From: a virus
Taxonomy: Duplodnaviria; Heunggongvirae; Uroviricota; Caudoviricetes
Virus record (IMG/VR): IMGVR_UViG_3300028361_000020
Coordinates: 64,001-101,322 of that record
Length of the DNA: 37,322 nt
Reading direction: 5' to 3' (one strand)
The stretch's first letter is position 1; each line of letters starts with the position of its first letter. Both the position numbers and the translations under genes were made by a program. Shown in pieces: positions 14,649-30,003 of the stretch. The notes under the pieces are model-generated. The model searched no databases, had not been told where the DNA came from, and saw only the letters and a list, made by a program, of their open reading frames with translations.

Positions 14649-14694
14649 TAATTCCTCGTTTCTGGGTTTAAATATTCATCCCGCACAGTATTTA

Positions 14695-14874
14695 TTACTG
14701 ATCGATTTTCTTTTCTTGGATTTCTCGTCGGCGAATAACTAACAATTCTTTCATATCGTGTAGTGCTTGTCTTGCACGAACAGCACTAACCTTAACGCTA
14801 TCTTCGTCGAATTTTTCACTTTCTCGAAGATATATAGCCCAGGTTAATTTTAACTGTTCATGCGTGTCACTCAC
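14695..14874 (-). CDS. small helical protein, 59 aa, resembling the histone H1-like Hc1 small-protein family
   Basis: Not in the ORF track; E.EKF....K.SA.RAR.AL..MK.L...RR.EIQE pattern. Confidence 0.65.
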   Translation of the reverse strand: MSDTHEQLKLTWAIYLRESEKFDEDSVKVSAVRARQALHDMKELLVIRRREIQEKKIDQ

Positions 14875-21829: not shown

Positions 21830-22255
21830 TTATTGTAGTTTTTGTGGAGTAAATTGTTTTTCAACTGTGATATGCACAGGTATTTGTTGTCTGTCTACTG
21901 CACAATCTGCATGGTAACCAATTACCATGTCGTCAACATACAGTAGATATTTTATCTCCGACTTTGCTCTATCTGCACAGATATATATCTCAAAAACTGA
22001 TTCCGAAAAGCGATTAGTTAACTGCAAAGTGTAGCATATTCCCAGAATAATGGAAAACTCGCAGTATACATTTTCGTAAACCAGTTCCCATGCGTTTGGC
22101 CATAACTTGTCGGCATACGGATCACAAGATATGCCGACCAGCGGTGCAGTATTGTAGAAGTCAACGGCGTCCTGAATAGGATACGCCGATGTCTCCAGCG
22201 TACTTCTAAAAGCTGACCATTCACGAAGACGGTCAACGTAATCTTTTTCAAACAT
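21830..22255 (-). CDS. hypothetical phage protein, 141 aa
   Basis: ORF coupled to the upstream stop. Confidence 0.75.
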   Translation of the reverse strand: MFEKDYVDRLREWSAFRSTLETSAYPIQDAVDFYNTAPLVGISCDPYADKLWPNAWELVYENVYCEFSIILGICYTLQLTNRFSESVFEIYICADRAKSEIKYLLYVDDMVIGYHADCAVDRQQIPVHITVEKQFTPQKLQ

Positions 22256-23847
22256 TAATTAGCTTTAACTCTTAAATTGTAAAGGAAACTGTCTGTGTCC
22301 ACAGTCCTGGTGTTCTTGGCCAATAGGTTAACTGTGACTATTGTGTTGTCAACAGTATACCCAGCATCAAAACTCAATGCATTCACTAACAATTCATCCC
22401 CAATGAAGTTGAATTCGTCGTTTATCATAATCTCTGGTGTATCTGCATCAGCAGCACATACAATTTCAATCGTGCCTTCTCTTAACACATTTACGGTGCT
22501 TCCGGTGCGTTCGGTGTAAACATAATCTATAAACATAGTGCCCTCAACAACTGGGAACTGTAATATTTCAGTATCGGTTGGCAAAGTTCCGATGCTGGTT
22601 GTGTTCAAGTAAGCCCCTTTGAAGAAGACTCTACCAGATACCTCTGGCACGTATGAAACACCAGTGTTGGTTGACAAGGCATCGGATCTTTCAAAATAAT
22701 CTCCATCCTCTACATTTGTATGAGAAGAGAAGTCAATGATTGCCACAGCATCTAGTCCTTCGGGTCCGCCAAAGTTGCCAACATTAAAGAACCTGTTTTG
22801 TCTGCTTGTATTGTAATCTCCGTAATCAAGACGTATTGCTTCCTTGTCAATTCTGTCAAAGTAAGAATTTTCAATGGTATTAAACTTTGGCCCAAACTTC
22901 ATAGCAATGGCACCAATGTTGGTATTCTTACCAAATCTAAATGCATTGCTTAATAGATAAAAACTACACAACGAAAAACTGTTGTGCATTGTGTCATAAT
23001 CACTGTACACTCCATAATAGAAACTGTCAATCTCTATATTATCAAATACATTGTTTTGACAAATGACTGTGTTATTTGAAGAATTCAACTCAATTGCACT
23101 GTGAGCGCCATAGATTGATTCAGCAGTGAGGAAGTTTTTGTTTTCAGGAAACACGCCGTTAATGCGTATATTTTTAAATACACTGTGTTTTACAGAATTT
23201 AGTACCATTGCTTTATGATCAACAGAGTTGACTACTAAACTCATTTCGGATATTTCAATGTATCTTGCTTGAGTATTTGAAGTAGGCGACGGTGCATTTG
23301 GATCAGATGGGTCGTAGTGCGTTGTTGTAAATAGATCACAATTATCTGCTAGTATCACGGTCTTGCCTTTGCCTGCGCCTCGGAGTGTGGTATACGGAGG
23401 AATTACAAGAGGTGAAGTAATGGTATAGTTGCCAGCAGGTATCCAAAGTATAACCCTGTTGGATACAGCAGCATTCTTATAAAGCTTATCAATTGCACTT
23501 TGAATGGCAGTTGTTTGATCTGTGCCGTCACCAGTTGCACCGAAATCAAAAATATTTGCCTTGTCATCTAGCTTGCTTTGTAGGCTTCTTGCAAATGGCA
23601 TACCATTCCAAAAATTACTCTGCGGCTTGTAAGTGTATTGCTCTGCTAGTTTAAATATGTCGGTACTTGCGGTAAGTATCCGTGTATTGCCAACAGCCGG
23701 AGCACCTTCGCTAACACTACCATTACCGATATATAGTTCTTGTGTATCGATTGCCCACCCAATTTCACCTGACGCAAGTTGTGGCAATGCTATACCCTCT
23801 GCTCTTCCGCGTCTGTGCTGAATCTTTGAGATCTGAATTATTGCCAT
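22255..23847 (-). CDS. virion/tailspike-like protein with a pectate-lyase-superfamily beta-helix
   Basis: DFGATGDG.DQT.AIQ.AI, IPAG.Y, TL.GAG; GEIGWAIDT.ELYIG N-terminal motif; AGGAG Shine-Dalgarno; upstream TAAATA at 23873..23878. Confidence 0.85.
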   Translation of the reverse strand: MAIIQISKIQHRRGRAEGIALPQLASGEIGWAIDTQELYIGNGSVSEGAPAVGNTRILTASTDIFKLAEQYTYKPQSNFWNGMPFARSLQSKLDDKANIFDFGATGDGTDQTTAIQSAIDKLYKNAAVSNRVILWIPAGNYTITSPLVIPPYTTLRGAGKGKTVILADNCDLFTTTHYDPSDPNAPSPTSNTQARYIEISEMSLVVNSVDHKAMVLNSVKHSVFKNIRINGVFPENKNFLTAESIYGAHSAIELNSSNNTVICQNNVFDNIEIDSFYYGVYSDYDTMHNSFSLCSFYLLSNAFRFGKNTNIGAIAMKFGPKFNTIENSYFDRIDKEAIRLDYGDYNTSRQNRFFNVGNFGGPEGLDAVAIIDFSSHTNVEDGDYFERSDALSTNTGVSYVPEVSGRVFFKGAYLNTTSIGTLPTDTEILQFPVVEGTMFIDYVYTERTGSTVNVLREGTIEIVCAADADTPEIMINDEFNFIGDELLVNALSFDAGYTVDNTIVTVNLLAKNTRTVDTDSFLYNLRVKAN

Positions 23848-24004
23848 TATGTTGCTCCTAGCTTACTAGAAGTATTTATCGCATTATAGAGCATCATTAA
23901 TTAATCAATCGAAGTCTGTTGATTACTATCTGTTGAAGCAATGGTAAATTTAAGCTAATTCTTACCATTGCAGGGTTCCTTGTTTGTTAAAAATGGTTAG
24001 TGCG

Positions 24005-24184
24005 TTACGTGTTCTCTTCATAATATTGCTGAACCCTCTTCCACCATTCTTGCGACCAATCATCAAACTCATGCGGCCATATATCAAACTGCTGATACTC
24101 CAAGGCGCGCGAGCACATAAAGACATGACCTTCGCGAATATCAGTGTTGTGAACTTCGTTATGTCCAATTGCATAAGCTGTAAG
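24005..24184 (-). pseudogene. displaced second copy of the exonuclease 3' end (59 codons)
   Basis: LTAYAIGHNEVHNTDIREGH...; 37/59 aa identical to the last 59 aa of 25165..25857. Confidence 0.9.
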
Positions 24185-24186
24185 AT

Positions 24187-25116
24187 TTACTTTCTTTTTG
24201 GCATTAATCTTCCTCGAACCCATCCTTTACTATTCCAATCCTGCAATTCGTCTATTTTTATTTTTTTGTTTTCTTGTCCATTATTAATCCATGCTGTATT
24301 TCTACGAGATTCTTTCATTTGTATGGATTTTTCAACTCCGTAAATTTCTTCGTAAGATTTTCCTTTTGTATCAAGAGTTAACCCTTTATTCCATGAAGAT
24401 TTGCCCTTCATTATGTTTGACATTTTTGCTAATCTCAAATCTGTTTCTTTTGTTTTGCCTGCATTCCATGGAGTTTTTCCTATCATATCAGGGCGAGGCT
24501 TTCCTTTTTTAGACTCTGCGTACTTTGCAACTTTTTCACAAGTTTCTTTTGTTTTGTCTTTATTCCATGCGGTCTTACCTTTTTTCTTTTCATTAGAATT
24601 CTTTCTAATTTCTTTTCCTTTTTCAGAATCATTAAATATTTTTATACCTTTTGAAATTGCTTCACAGCGTTCTTTGCTATAACTTCCTAATTTTTGTCCT
24701 TTTAAATGCGAAGGCTTACCTTTATGTGCCTCGCTTATTTTTATTTTTGTTTCCTCAGTTAGAATGCGTCCGCCTCGGCCGCCCGCGTCGATATTAGTTA
24801 ACCTTCCAGTCTTAATACATCTTCGTCCGTAAAACTCAATTAATTTTCTTTCTTTCTCACATGCTTCATTGTATGTTAAATTTTCATATGGAAATCGATA
24901 TTCTATATCGATTTCTTTTTCAACTAACTGTAATATTACATGTATCTTATACATGTTTAATTTTTTAATATTTTTTATTTGATTGTTTTTGTATTTTATC
25001 GCTTCTCGAATATGATCTTTATATCTAGGCTGTGTGGTTTTCCTGTTGTGTTTCCCGTATCCAACATAGATAGGCTCATTATCAATAGGATTCCATAATT
25101 CGTAAATGTAATACAT
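24187..25116 (-). mobile_element. free-standing GIY-YIG homing endonuclease with NUMOD3-type repeats, 309 aa
   Basis: YYIYELWNP....IYVG, conserved R/E/N, EETKIKISEAHKGK and PWNKG repeats; AT-rich; start re-called to ATG 25116 (AAGGA). Confidence 0.85.
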
Positions 25117-25154
25117 TTTTTTCCTTTTGCATACGCTGTTGCTCATAACAAAAG

Positions 25155-25160
25155 TATTTA
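25155..25160 (-). promoter_or_regulatory. late-type TAAATA promoter for the endonuclease
   Basis: GATAAATAC context, repeated at other intergenic sites. Confidence 0.5.
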
Positions 25161-25164
25161 TCAA

Positions 25165-25857
25165 TTATGCACAATTCTTATAATAATCGTATACTCTGTC
25201 CCATGCTTTTTTTGACCAGTATTCCCATTCATCCGGCCATACATCAAACTGTTGATATTCGAGAGCACGCGAGCACATAAAGATATGGCCTTCACGAATA
25301 TCGGTACCATGGACTTCATTATGTGCAATACCATAAAGAACAATTTGTAATCGATAGTCTTCTACCCATTCGAGCTTCTTAGGCTTGTTGGTTTGTTTGA
25401 AGTCGATTATCGAAGGGTTGCCTTTGAATGTTCCTACTAGGTCAGTTGTACCTGCATAGACATCAGGAACATATAATGCAACTTCGCTGCCCCATATTTG
25501 ATCTACATGTACCATAGCTTCGTTACGTATAACACATGCCATTTTATGAGCTTGCTGTGCATACGGATTGCTTCCGGCACTTGGCCATTCACCGGTTTCC
25601 ACATAAGTCTCGAGATACTTGTGCATTCTGGTACCAACACCGGCTGCTTCGACGGTAATCTCTTGCGCCTTTTGATGGCCTACTCTCTTGCGCCATTCGT
25701 GCAAGTGTGTCTGATCCTTGGTTGCGCCAAGGATGGTAGTAACACTAGGAACAGGAATGTTACCGGCGCCACTGTAGCGCCGTTTGCCATCTACTTCGAC
25801 TCTTGAAAGTTTTCTATAATCGTACTTGGGTTTAATTAATGTCAACTGTATCTCCAT
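25165..25857 (-). CDS. PD-(D/E)xK exonuclease (T4-like/MGME1-like)
   Basis: PSVTTIL, GT.MH..LE, YAGTTDL, IIDFKQT motifs. Confidence 0.88.
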   Translation of the reverse strand: MEIQLTLIKPKYDYRKLSRVEVDGKRRYSGAGNIPVPSVTTILGATKDQTHLHEWRKRVGHQKAQEITVEAAGVGTRMHKYLETYVETGEWPSAGSNPYAQQAHKMACVIRNEAMVHVDQIWGSEVALYVPDVYAGTTDLVGTFKGNPSIIDFKQTNKPKKLEWVEDYRLQIVLYGIAHNEVHGTDIREGHIFMCSRALEYQQFDVWPDEWEYWSKKAWDRVYDYYKNCA

Positions 25858-25865
25858 TTAACTGT

Positions 25866-25894
25866 ATTATAGCAGTCTAATAGGATAAAGTCAA
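25866..25894 (-). promoter_or_regulatory. sigma70-type promoter TTGACT-17-TATAAT
   Basis: Consensus with TG extended -10. Confidence 0.8.
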
Positions 25895-25897
25895 GTA

Positions 25898-26170
25898 TTA
25901 AAGATCGTTGTCGCTTAAATCGGTTGCATTTCTTGCCATTGTGGCCACAGTGTCGCCTCCGGACTGGTCTGCATCAACTTCGAGGTCGTCAGCTTCGCTG
26001 TCCTTTAATGTTACCTTTTGGTGATCAAAGTCTTTGATGATGTTTTGAATTTTAGGATCACTGTCAAAGGCAGCACGCAAAACTTCGTAGGTGAATTGCT
26101 GACTGCCCATGTTTGCCATATACTTGTTTAACTGCCTAATACTAAATTCCATGAATCCGTTATCTTTCAT
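25898..26170 (-). CDS. hypothetical acidic protein
   Basis: ORF; true start uncertain. Confidence 0.7.
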   Translation of the reverse strand: MKDNGFMEFSIRQLNKYMANMGSQQFTYEVLRAAFDSDPKIQNIIKDFDHQKVTLKDSEADDLEVDADQSGGDTVATMARNATDLSDNDL

Positions 26171-29894: not shown

Positions 29895-30003
29895 TTTATT
29901 TCTCCTAGATTCTCTATGGCAACAATCTTACGCTCCGTAAGTGTTGTTAAAAGTATTTATCTCTTTTAGAAAAATCTCAATTAAAAGGCATCAAAACAGA
30001 GAA

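Follow-up and report, generated by a model that had tools for sequence, protein, structure and literature searches.

In a 37,322-nucleotide (nt) stretch of DNA from a virus of the Caudoviricetes (the window; positions 64,001 to 101,322 of IMG/VR record IMGVR_UViG_3300028361_000020), the 3′ end of an exonuclease gene is present twice, once on either side of a free-standing homing endonuclease gene. This locus is very probably a gene-end-replacing homing cassette. The mobile unit consists of a replacement 3′ end of a type that we call A (59 codons and a stop), a short leader and the free-standing endonuclease gene. It sits between codons 171 and 172 of the exonuclease gene, in the middle of the helix with the presumed QxxxY motif, and the native end of the gene, copy B, lies untranslated behind the endonuclease gene. 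All genes of the region are on the minus strand, in the order exonuclease, 48-nt leader, endonuclease, copy B and tail-fibre-like gene.

The exonuclease open reading frame (ORF; 25857..25165, minus strand) encodes an MGME1-like PD-(D/E)XK enzyme of 230 amino acids (aa), with matches to Pfam PDDEXK_1 and to PHROG exonucleases. Codons 1–171 (25345..25857, minus), which encode the D...D-x-K core, form the resident 5′ part. In frame with them follows copy A, the imported replacement end (25165..25344, minus; codons 25344..25168, stop 25167..25165). The endonuclease gene (24187..25116, minus) has 309 codons and a TAA stop at 24189..24187, and copy B, the displaced native end, likewise comprises 59 codons and a stop (24005..24184, minus; codons 24184..24008, stop 24007..24005). 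An earlier inspection of the letters of the window (the sequence-only reading) had reported that the last 59 exonuclease codons are repeated at equal length, with 37 of 59 residues identical, 2 nt behind the endonuclease stop. All of its coordinates were reproduced, the 2-nt gap is seen at 24186..24185, and B contains no internal stop or frameshift. By BLASTP, 37 of 56 aligned residues are identical (E = 1e-29); at the DNA level, the two copies match over 157 nt at 74%, the sole direct repeat of at least 40 nt in the 37-kb window. The same reading had placed the greatest divergence at the junction. The head is indeed diverged (2/7 residues identical), but so are the last 22 residues (8/22), with 27 of 30 identical in the middle, so that divergence between A and B is concentrated at both ends.

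Scans with the endonuclease found the same gene order, with the insert again at this place in the exonuclease gene, at four other loci, L081 from IMG/VR and L095, L096 and L097 from metagenomes, whose endonucleases are 53%, 85%, 57% and 59% identical to that of the window, respectively. The recurrent order is the 5′ part, A, a stop, a leader of 38–49 nt, a 309-aa endonuclease and B. The exact endonuclease of the window is present on 7 independent contigs and an exact 72-aa ORF that contains B on 11. Given this recurrence and the same architecture in four other assemblies, the arrangement is no assembly artefact.

An AlphaFold2 model of the exonuclease (predicted local distance difference test, pLDDT, 91; predicted template-modelling score, pTM, 0.87) matched human MGME1 in a Foldseek search (E = 3.6e-11; template-modelling (TM) score 0.7; ~205 residues superposed). 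Codon 171|172, where the insertion occurred, maps to the central part of helix 166–183 in this model. The helix bears the residues L-Q-x-x-x-Y, which we take to be the QxxxY motif of RecB-type nucleases; in the alignment with MGME1, LQVVAY occupies the equivalent position. Residues 172–230 form the remainder of the helix, two strands and the terminal helix (pLDDT 93–97). Because they belong to the fold, an exonuclease truncated at codon 171 would lose part of its core, and on this model the gene needs a 3′ end.

Which of the two ends is native can be read from relatives that have no endonuclease. A search with codons 1–171 against 5.8 billion proteins gave P0002 as the closest endonuclease-free relative, 88% identical over this part. 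Its residues 172–230 are 92% (54/59) identical to B and 64% to A. P0002 reads ...DYFLQ|LTAYAIGHNE... uninterrupted and is thus an empty-site allele; its cluster includes P0123, which occurs on 18 contigs, the longest of 242 kb. The empty-site architecture, a 5′ part joined to a B-type end, was also found in 42 unique single-copy ends of IMG/VR loci. B-type heads and tails were seen in 103 of the 120 exonucleases closest to that of the window, A-type ones in 6.

B-type and A-type ends are parted, in a tree built from 56 C-termini, by a branch supported at 93/93. On the B side are B of the window, the B copies of L095, L096 and L097, that of L001 (a locus with two copies of the end and no endonuclease), and all 42 endonuclease-free single-copy ends. 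Every A-type end falls on the other side, including those upstream of homologous endonucleases in other loci. An approximately unbiased (AU) test rejected A and B as sisters (p = 0.006; the group was named after the tree had been seen). We also took 111 unique native-type ends and counted deviations at 25 columns whose conservation among these ends is 97% or more. These functional ends deviate at no more than one column each, and every A-type end carries A3(L/M), A5G and W47A at such columns (A3L, A5G and W47A in A of the window). All A copies have heads of the form x-V/A-L/M-Y-G and tails of the form WPD(E/Q)W...AW(D/N)R; all B copies and endonuclease-free ends have LTAYA (or LVAYA) heads, and B copies and endonuclease-free ends have WP.E(F/Y)..W..EW(W/Y).R tails. 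As judged from these sequences, B is the native end of the exonuclease gene. The sequence-only reading had made this grouping its test, and the outcome favours its interpretation: the upstream copy, A, groups with endonuclease-associated ends, and B with endonuclease-free relatives. Its YRLQ| junction is correct as the insertion point, but the native junction reads YFLQ|LTAY, the R of YRLQ belonging to the imported tract.

The extent of the imported DNA is apparent from two comparisons. The exonuclease genes of the window and L001 are 72.7% identical in nucleotides overall, and 56–84% in 45-nt windows, until identity rises to 100% over exactly 208 nt (25161..25368, minus). This tract starts 24 nt upstream of the junction and runs through A and its stop to TTGA, so the final 24 nt of the exonuclease 5′ part (25368..25345) are already inside it; upstream of the tract, the L001 exonuclease is ~73% identical. 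Against L095, nucleotide identity is 55–78% in the exonuclease 5′ part, 80–98% from ~25400 to 24190 (A and the endonuclease), 72–78% in B and 50–66% beyond B. Copy A is 90% identical to that of L095 at the amino acid level. The proportion of synonymous differences (pS) between the two loci amounts to 0.40 for the endonuclease and 0.43 for the tail of A, and is saturated outside the block (0.74 in the 5′ part, 0.87–1.0 in B). For ratios of nonsynonymous to synonymous change (dN/dS), most comparisons were synonymous-saturated; only window–L095, L096–L097 and the within-genome middles were informative. The identity profile and pS together indicate that the recently shared block consists of A and the endonuclease and ends at the endonuclease stop. 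By this sequence evidence, A and the endonuclease gene form a horizontally shared mobile block.

Several features indicate that the mobile gene encodes a GIY-YIG/NUMOD3 homing endonuclease. It likely starts at ATG 25116 rather than at TTG 25164, since an AAAGGA ribosome-binding site precedes the ATG and all six homologues have MYYIYELW at this Met; the N-terminus MYYIYELW...YVGY is invariant among them. NUMOD3 is matched in two stretches (E = 3e-9) and PHROG 314, ‘homing endonuclease’, at 1e-5. In an AlphaFold2 model, residues 1–96 (pLDDT ~78) have the order β-β-α-α-β-α, and the top 14 Foldseek matches in the PDB are all GIY-YIG domains (PD-T4-3, I-TevI 1mk0/1ln0, UvrC and T4 EndoII among them), with TM scores of 0.6–0.7 on the target for I-TevI. 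A sequence search of the PDB with the endonuclease profile returned noise only. Invariant in the six homologues are Y3, Y5, Y17-V18-G19, R25, R31, H35, E89 and N108. These Y-x-Y, Y-x-G, Arg, Glu and Asn residues presumably have the catalytic roles known from I-TevI. The ORF is intact in all five loci. Outside the window, a weak second match to the NUMOD3-repeat region (E = 6.6e-4) lies at G000:C1:59795-59959 within a 230-aa open frame, which may be another endonuclease gene of the same phage.

Comparison of the five loci also bears on the status of B. In four of them (the window, L095, L096 and L097) the insertion points agree, the endonuclease stop lying at most 5 nt from B codon 172; L081 has an 85-nt spacer in place of the B head. 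The frame of B relative to the endonuclease is −1 in the window, L095 and L096, and 0 in L097. The B copies of the window and L095 deviate at none of the 25 conserved columns, those of L096, L097 and L081 at three each; residues lost in the older copies are E10A (of an invariant HNE), W43C, W43Y and A3/A5. The decay of older copies and the differing frame indicate that B is a relic rather than a gene. Within each genome, the middles of A and B have lineage-specific residues in common (ALEY, DLTY, TRDLEY or SKDGLY), and their nucleotide identity is 81% in the window, 82% in L095, 83% in L096, 89% in L001, 92% in L081 and 93% in L097. Such matching middles point to gene conversion between the copies.

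Could B instead be functional, kept for the benefit of the phage as the 72-aa ORF, as a frameshift or readthrough product with the endonuclease or as an alternative exonuclease tail? Its frame is open in all five loci, the copies of the window and L095 agree with all 25 conserved columns, an ATG is available to the 72-aa ORF, and the L097 copy keeps the reading frame of the endonuclease past its stop. However, frame, upstream extension and start codon vary among loci and are not kept in L096, L097 and L081, no ribosome-binding site precedes B, and conserved residues have been lost from the older copies as described. On its own, B would encode half a helix, two strands and one helix of a larger fold, and its middle is 92–93% identical to that of A in L097 and L081. 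The apparent constraint on B is explained by recent displacement and conversion from A. The 72-aa ORF itself (24005..24223, minus), which overlaps the endonuclease 3′ end in another frame, had no Pfam or PHROG match and is probably no gene. A function of B is unlikely, less so for the young copies than for the older ones. Recoding that would join the endonuclease to B was also considered, and was rejected because the frame relation differs among loci.

A number of observations count against a homing cassette in its simplest form. The middle 30 codons of A have the residues of the window's own lineage (ALEY, as in B and P0002), and they have diverged from those of L095 as much as the background (pS 0.84). 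A is therefore not uniformly foreign, and the simple picture of a wholly foreign end needs later gene conversion between A and B, which would account for a middle that is native-like and distant from L095. In sequence, A is a mosaic with a foreign head and tail and a native-like middle; the proposal of the sequence-only reading that a foreign C-terminus displaced the native end thus stands for the head and tail of A and for B, but not for the middle of A. The empty-site alleles P0002, P0123 and other members of their cluster are known at the protein level only. In deeper lineages, cassette and phage backbone diverge in parallel, so recent mobility is supported only for the group of the window, L095 and L001. 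As to the endonuclease, the Foldseek E-values of its GIY-YIG matches are modest (7e-3 to 0.5), and it matched no GIY-YIG model of Pfam or NCBIfam; the L081 protein is the sole homologue with a GIY-YIG Pfam match, and its matches are weak (LEM-3_GIY-YIG, 7.6e-4; GIY_YIG_domain, 0.016). Finally, L001 (L001:4481-4879) has A, TAATTGA and a second copy in this order, without an endonuclease. The second copy begins 11 nt upstream of the insertion site (ATCGATTACAA, encoding YRLQ), matches the first copy exactly over its initial 82 nt and has a B-type tail. This tandem may be the result of abortive one-sided repair or a deletion derivative, and its structure does not derive cleanly from the mechanism proposed below.

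The arrangement in L001, and the lineage-specific middle residues common to A and B in every genome, would also suit a different history, in which the last 180 nt of the exonuclease gene were duplicated in tandem within the lineage, the endonuclease landed between the copies later and the copies then diverged. We consider this very improbable. A and B were rejected as sisters by the AU test (p = 0.006), the closest relative matches B at 92% and A at 64%, and A bears the signature of the A-type ends of other phages, with 208 nt that are 100% identical to L001 in a ~73% background. Moreover, in the window the two copies encode their common middle residues with different codons (pS 0.71), which fits older conversion or selection and not a recent duplication.

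Equally improbable is that A is the resident end and that the incoming unit was the endonuclease with B, inserted past the stop of an intact gene. Free-standing phage endonuclease genes are normally intergenic, and such a position is seen at the distant locus L098 (L098:1818-3079), where a truncated endonuclease homologue of 192 aa has its ATG overlapping the stop of the exonuclease gene and no second copy is present. This homologue retains the GIY-YIG part and one NUMOD3 and is without the DNA-binding tail. Yet in the window, it is B that the nearest endonuclease-free relative matches (92%), not A (64%); the highly similar block seen against L095 and L001 includes A and extends no further than the stop of the endonuclease gene, leaving B outside; and 103 of the 120 closest exonucleases have B-type ends, with A-type ends in 6. 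Least probable of all is a self-splicing group I intron or an intein with the endonuclease as passenger, the 5′ part and B being joined as RNA or protein: many phage GIY-YIG endonucleases are intron-encoded, but no Rfam family was found at E ≤1 on either strand of 23700..26000, intein blocks are absent, A terminates in a stop codon and by itself is homologous to the whole of the missing end, and B is out of frame with the endonuclease. The suggestion of the sequence-only reading that the host gene stays intact without splicing fits these results, as the 5′ part reads into A to give a complete 230-aa frame and no Rfam intron was matched.

For the gene-end-replacing cassette, we infer cutting at the junction and resistance of A from the sequences, and the following course of events would be consistent with them. 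In a mixed infection, the endonuclease would cut cassette-free alleles (...DYFLQ|LTAYA...) at or near the insertion point. The break would be repaired from a cassette-bearing genome, with the resident 5′ part and B providing homology arms on the left and right, respectively, and repair would copy in A and the endonuclease gene. A would be spared by its recoded, altered head (IVLYGIA vs LTAYAIA), and B because the left half of the target site is missing. The founding event was probably one-sided homologous repair combined with an illegitimate join; repair of this one-sided, illegitimate kind has been reported for T4 introns that home when one exon is lacking (PMC2988022). Later, gene conversion would homogenise the conserved middles of A and B, and recombination between A and B, or deletion, would remove the endonuclease and leave resistant A-type or chimeric alleles. 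The tail-fibre gene, at only 32–46% identity among relatives, cannot act as a homology arm. B might then be an adaptation of the element itself, a built-in right homology arm next to a hypervariable gene that is kept by conversion with A, and the supply of a gene end might be a general third strategy of phage homing endonucleases. We put this forward tentatively, at slightly less than even chances.

Other loci without an intact cassette carry footprints of its loss. The endonuclease-free L002 has the head and tail of A around a different middle, followed by an unrelated 78-aa ORF without annotation (L002:4675-4911). L043, also endonuclease-free, has a full A-type end and behind it a 126-aa ORF (L043:1221-1601) with an HNH PHROG match (3.9e-6). 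The gap between exonuclease and tail-fibre gene behind A-type ends thus looks like a hot spot for selfish genes. P0039 is of the A type as far as the middle of the tail and of the B type beyond. P0001, known as a protein only, from a 1360-nt Joint Genome Institute (JGI) contig, equals the exonuclease of the window exactly up to ...DRVYDYY and continues with a B-like end, EENT. It fits a putative pop-out of the endonuclease, with a deletion between the two sides of a TATTAT microhomology; the predicted A|B junction had no exact match among viral contigs. At L046 (L046:2477-4672), an apparently exact tandem repeat of ~1.2 kb comprises the end of a scaffold-like gene, a 94-aa gene and the first ~150 exonuclease codons and yields a fused 297-aa ORF; the repeat may be genuine or may have arisen in assembly.

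The leader of the endonuclease gene contains candidate expression signals. The exonuclease stop is directly followed by the late-promoter-like motif ATAAATACT (25153..25161, minus), which precedes the endonuclease ATG by 37 nt. It occurs four times in the window (0.76 expected), always on the coding strand and 24–60 nt upstream of a start codon; the other sites, all minus, are 23871-23879 (before the tail-fibre gene), 14687-14695 and 29952-29960. All five loci with an endonuclease retain TAAATAC(T), and in L001 a further TAAATACT overlaps the stop of its second copy. The motif resembles a T4-type late promoter and is a candidate for one. Next to it, a small conserved stem-loop (25124..25154, minus) is followed by the AAAGGA ribosome-binding site. 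Across the five loci, 3 of its 12 predicted pairs show compensatory changes, on both sides, and the stem-loop could be a translational or autoregulatory element such as those known for T4 endonuclease genes. The exonuclease gene itself is preceded by a sigma-70-like promoter (25866..25894, minus; TTGACT-17-TATAAT with an extended TG), identified by a consensus match only, at 11 of 12 positions. In contrast to this sigma-70-type promoter, the ATAAATACT motif and the conserved stem-loop in the leader suggest that the endonuclease is expressed late and under separate control.

The window is the final 37 kb of a 101-kb IMG/VR record. CheckV gives the record a completeness of 27%, indicating a large phage, and related contigs reach 242 kb. 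The host of the cassette is a large uncultured lake phage. A blastn search of the region against isolated phages found no similar sequence, and the exonuclease is less than 60% identical to any GenBank phage protein, the top matches being in jumbo phages of 350 kb, GAP32 and 121Q among them. To the right of the cassette lies a tail-fibre-like gene (22255..23847, minus) with Mtd_N and pectate-lyase-like domains, which is hypervariable, with 32–46% aa identity among relatives. Between this gene and B, 35 nt past the B stop, lies a perfect 9-bp inverted repeat, CAATGGTAA ... TTACCATTG, with a 14-nt loop and no T-run (23939-23970, minus), which could represent the 3′ structure native to the exonuclease transcript.

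The closest known counterparts are the mORF ‘gene hybrids’ of fungal mitochondria, described for atp6 in Allomyces macrogynus and for atp6, atp9, cox2 and nad3 in Glomus sp. (Beaudet et al. 2013, PMC3630166); partial C-terminal duplications in fungal mitochondria are also reported in PMC6279837 and PMC7487136. The analogy with fungal mitochondrial endonuclease elements that the sequence-only reading had drawn is borne out by the organisation of these hybrids: a host gene, an in-frame foreign C-terminus, an endonuclease ORF and the displaced native C-terminus. In both systems, the native fragment is nearer to the gene of a relative (91–98% vs 64–81% in nucleotides in Glomus, 92% vs 64% in amino acids in the phage), and the Glomus atp9 element also encodes a GIY-YIG enzyme. 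The phage case differs in that the genome is not that of an organelle and the target is a nuclease gene. Unlike the mORFs of atp6 and nad3, which are fused in phase, the phage endonuclease is its own cistron with a promoter-like motif and a ribosome-binding site. The phage data go further than the hybrids in including an empty site, several loss footprints and concerted evolution of both copies.

WHO homing elements, found at FBA1 in Torulaspora and Lachancea yeasts (Coughlan et al. 2020, eLife, PMC7282813; bioRxiv 10.64898/2026.08.13.744650), are on paper built in the same way, from a resistance-conferring 3′ end and an endonuclease gene, with the old 3′ fragment as a homology arm. As at the phage locus, the 5′ part of the host gene differs in history from the 3′ part, and fragments decay later. 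WHO proteins, however, are intein-like LAGLIDADG/zinc-finger proteins unrelated to the phage GIY-YIG/NUMOD3 protein, and by its fold and its NUMOD3 the phage endonuclease is no member of the WHO/HO/VDE family. WHO elements home in diploid meiosis and build clusters, whereas the phage has one element per locus and a setting of co-infection. Cleavage by WHO has been shown experimentally; the phage cassette is known here from its sequence.

Among phages, the nearest systems are the free-standing Seg (GIY-YIG) and Mob (HNH) endonucleases of T4-like phages, which act in intronless homing and marker exclusion (PMC2988022; SegB, PMC2330249; MobE, PMC2790892). Like the Seg genes, the gene described here is a free-standing phage gene for an endonuclease of the GIY-YIG class. 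As with Seg and Mob, relatives are polymorphic for the gene, highly identical co-converted tracts flank it, and it is provided with late-type expression signals. Unlike the phage cassette, Seg and Mob genes are intergenic or split a gene (Aeh1 nrdA, T4 gene 39/60, phage 25 gene 43). They have not been described with a replacement gene end and a displaced duplicate, and the T4 review PMC2988022 does not contain the string ‘duplicat’. A full-text literature search found no phage case of a gene-end-replacing cassette, in a coverage that leaves out many subscription papers, so that absence is no proof. The organisation and logic are thus those of the mORF hybrids and WHO elements, and no published example in a phage was found.

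The known routes of such elements into phage genes are introns and inteins, or the splitting of a gene into two working pieces. The locus described here shows a third solution, known from fungal mitochondria (mORFs) and yeast nuclei (WHO), in which the element brings a substitute gene end. Metagenomes hold all stages of the process: an empty site, occupied sites with endonucleases 53–85% identical to that of the window, decaying displaced ends, and endonuclease-free alleles that are putatively resistant or are chimeric. They therefore provide a natural system for the origin, spread and loss of such cassettes in viruses. For annotation, short ‘orphan’ ORFs behind endonuclease genes can be displaced gene ends. 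For phylogeny, the 3′ ends of conserved phage genes can differ in history from their 5′ parts. If B does serve as a built-in homology arm, a replacement gene end would be a way into essential coding sequence beside introns, inteins and gene splitting.

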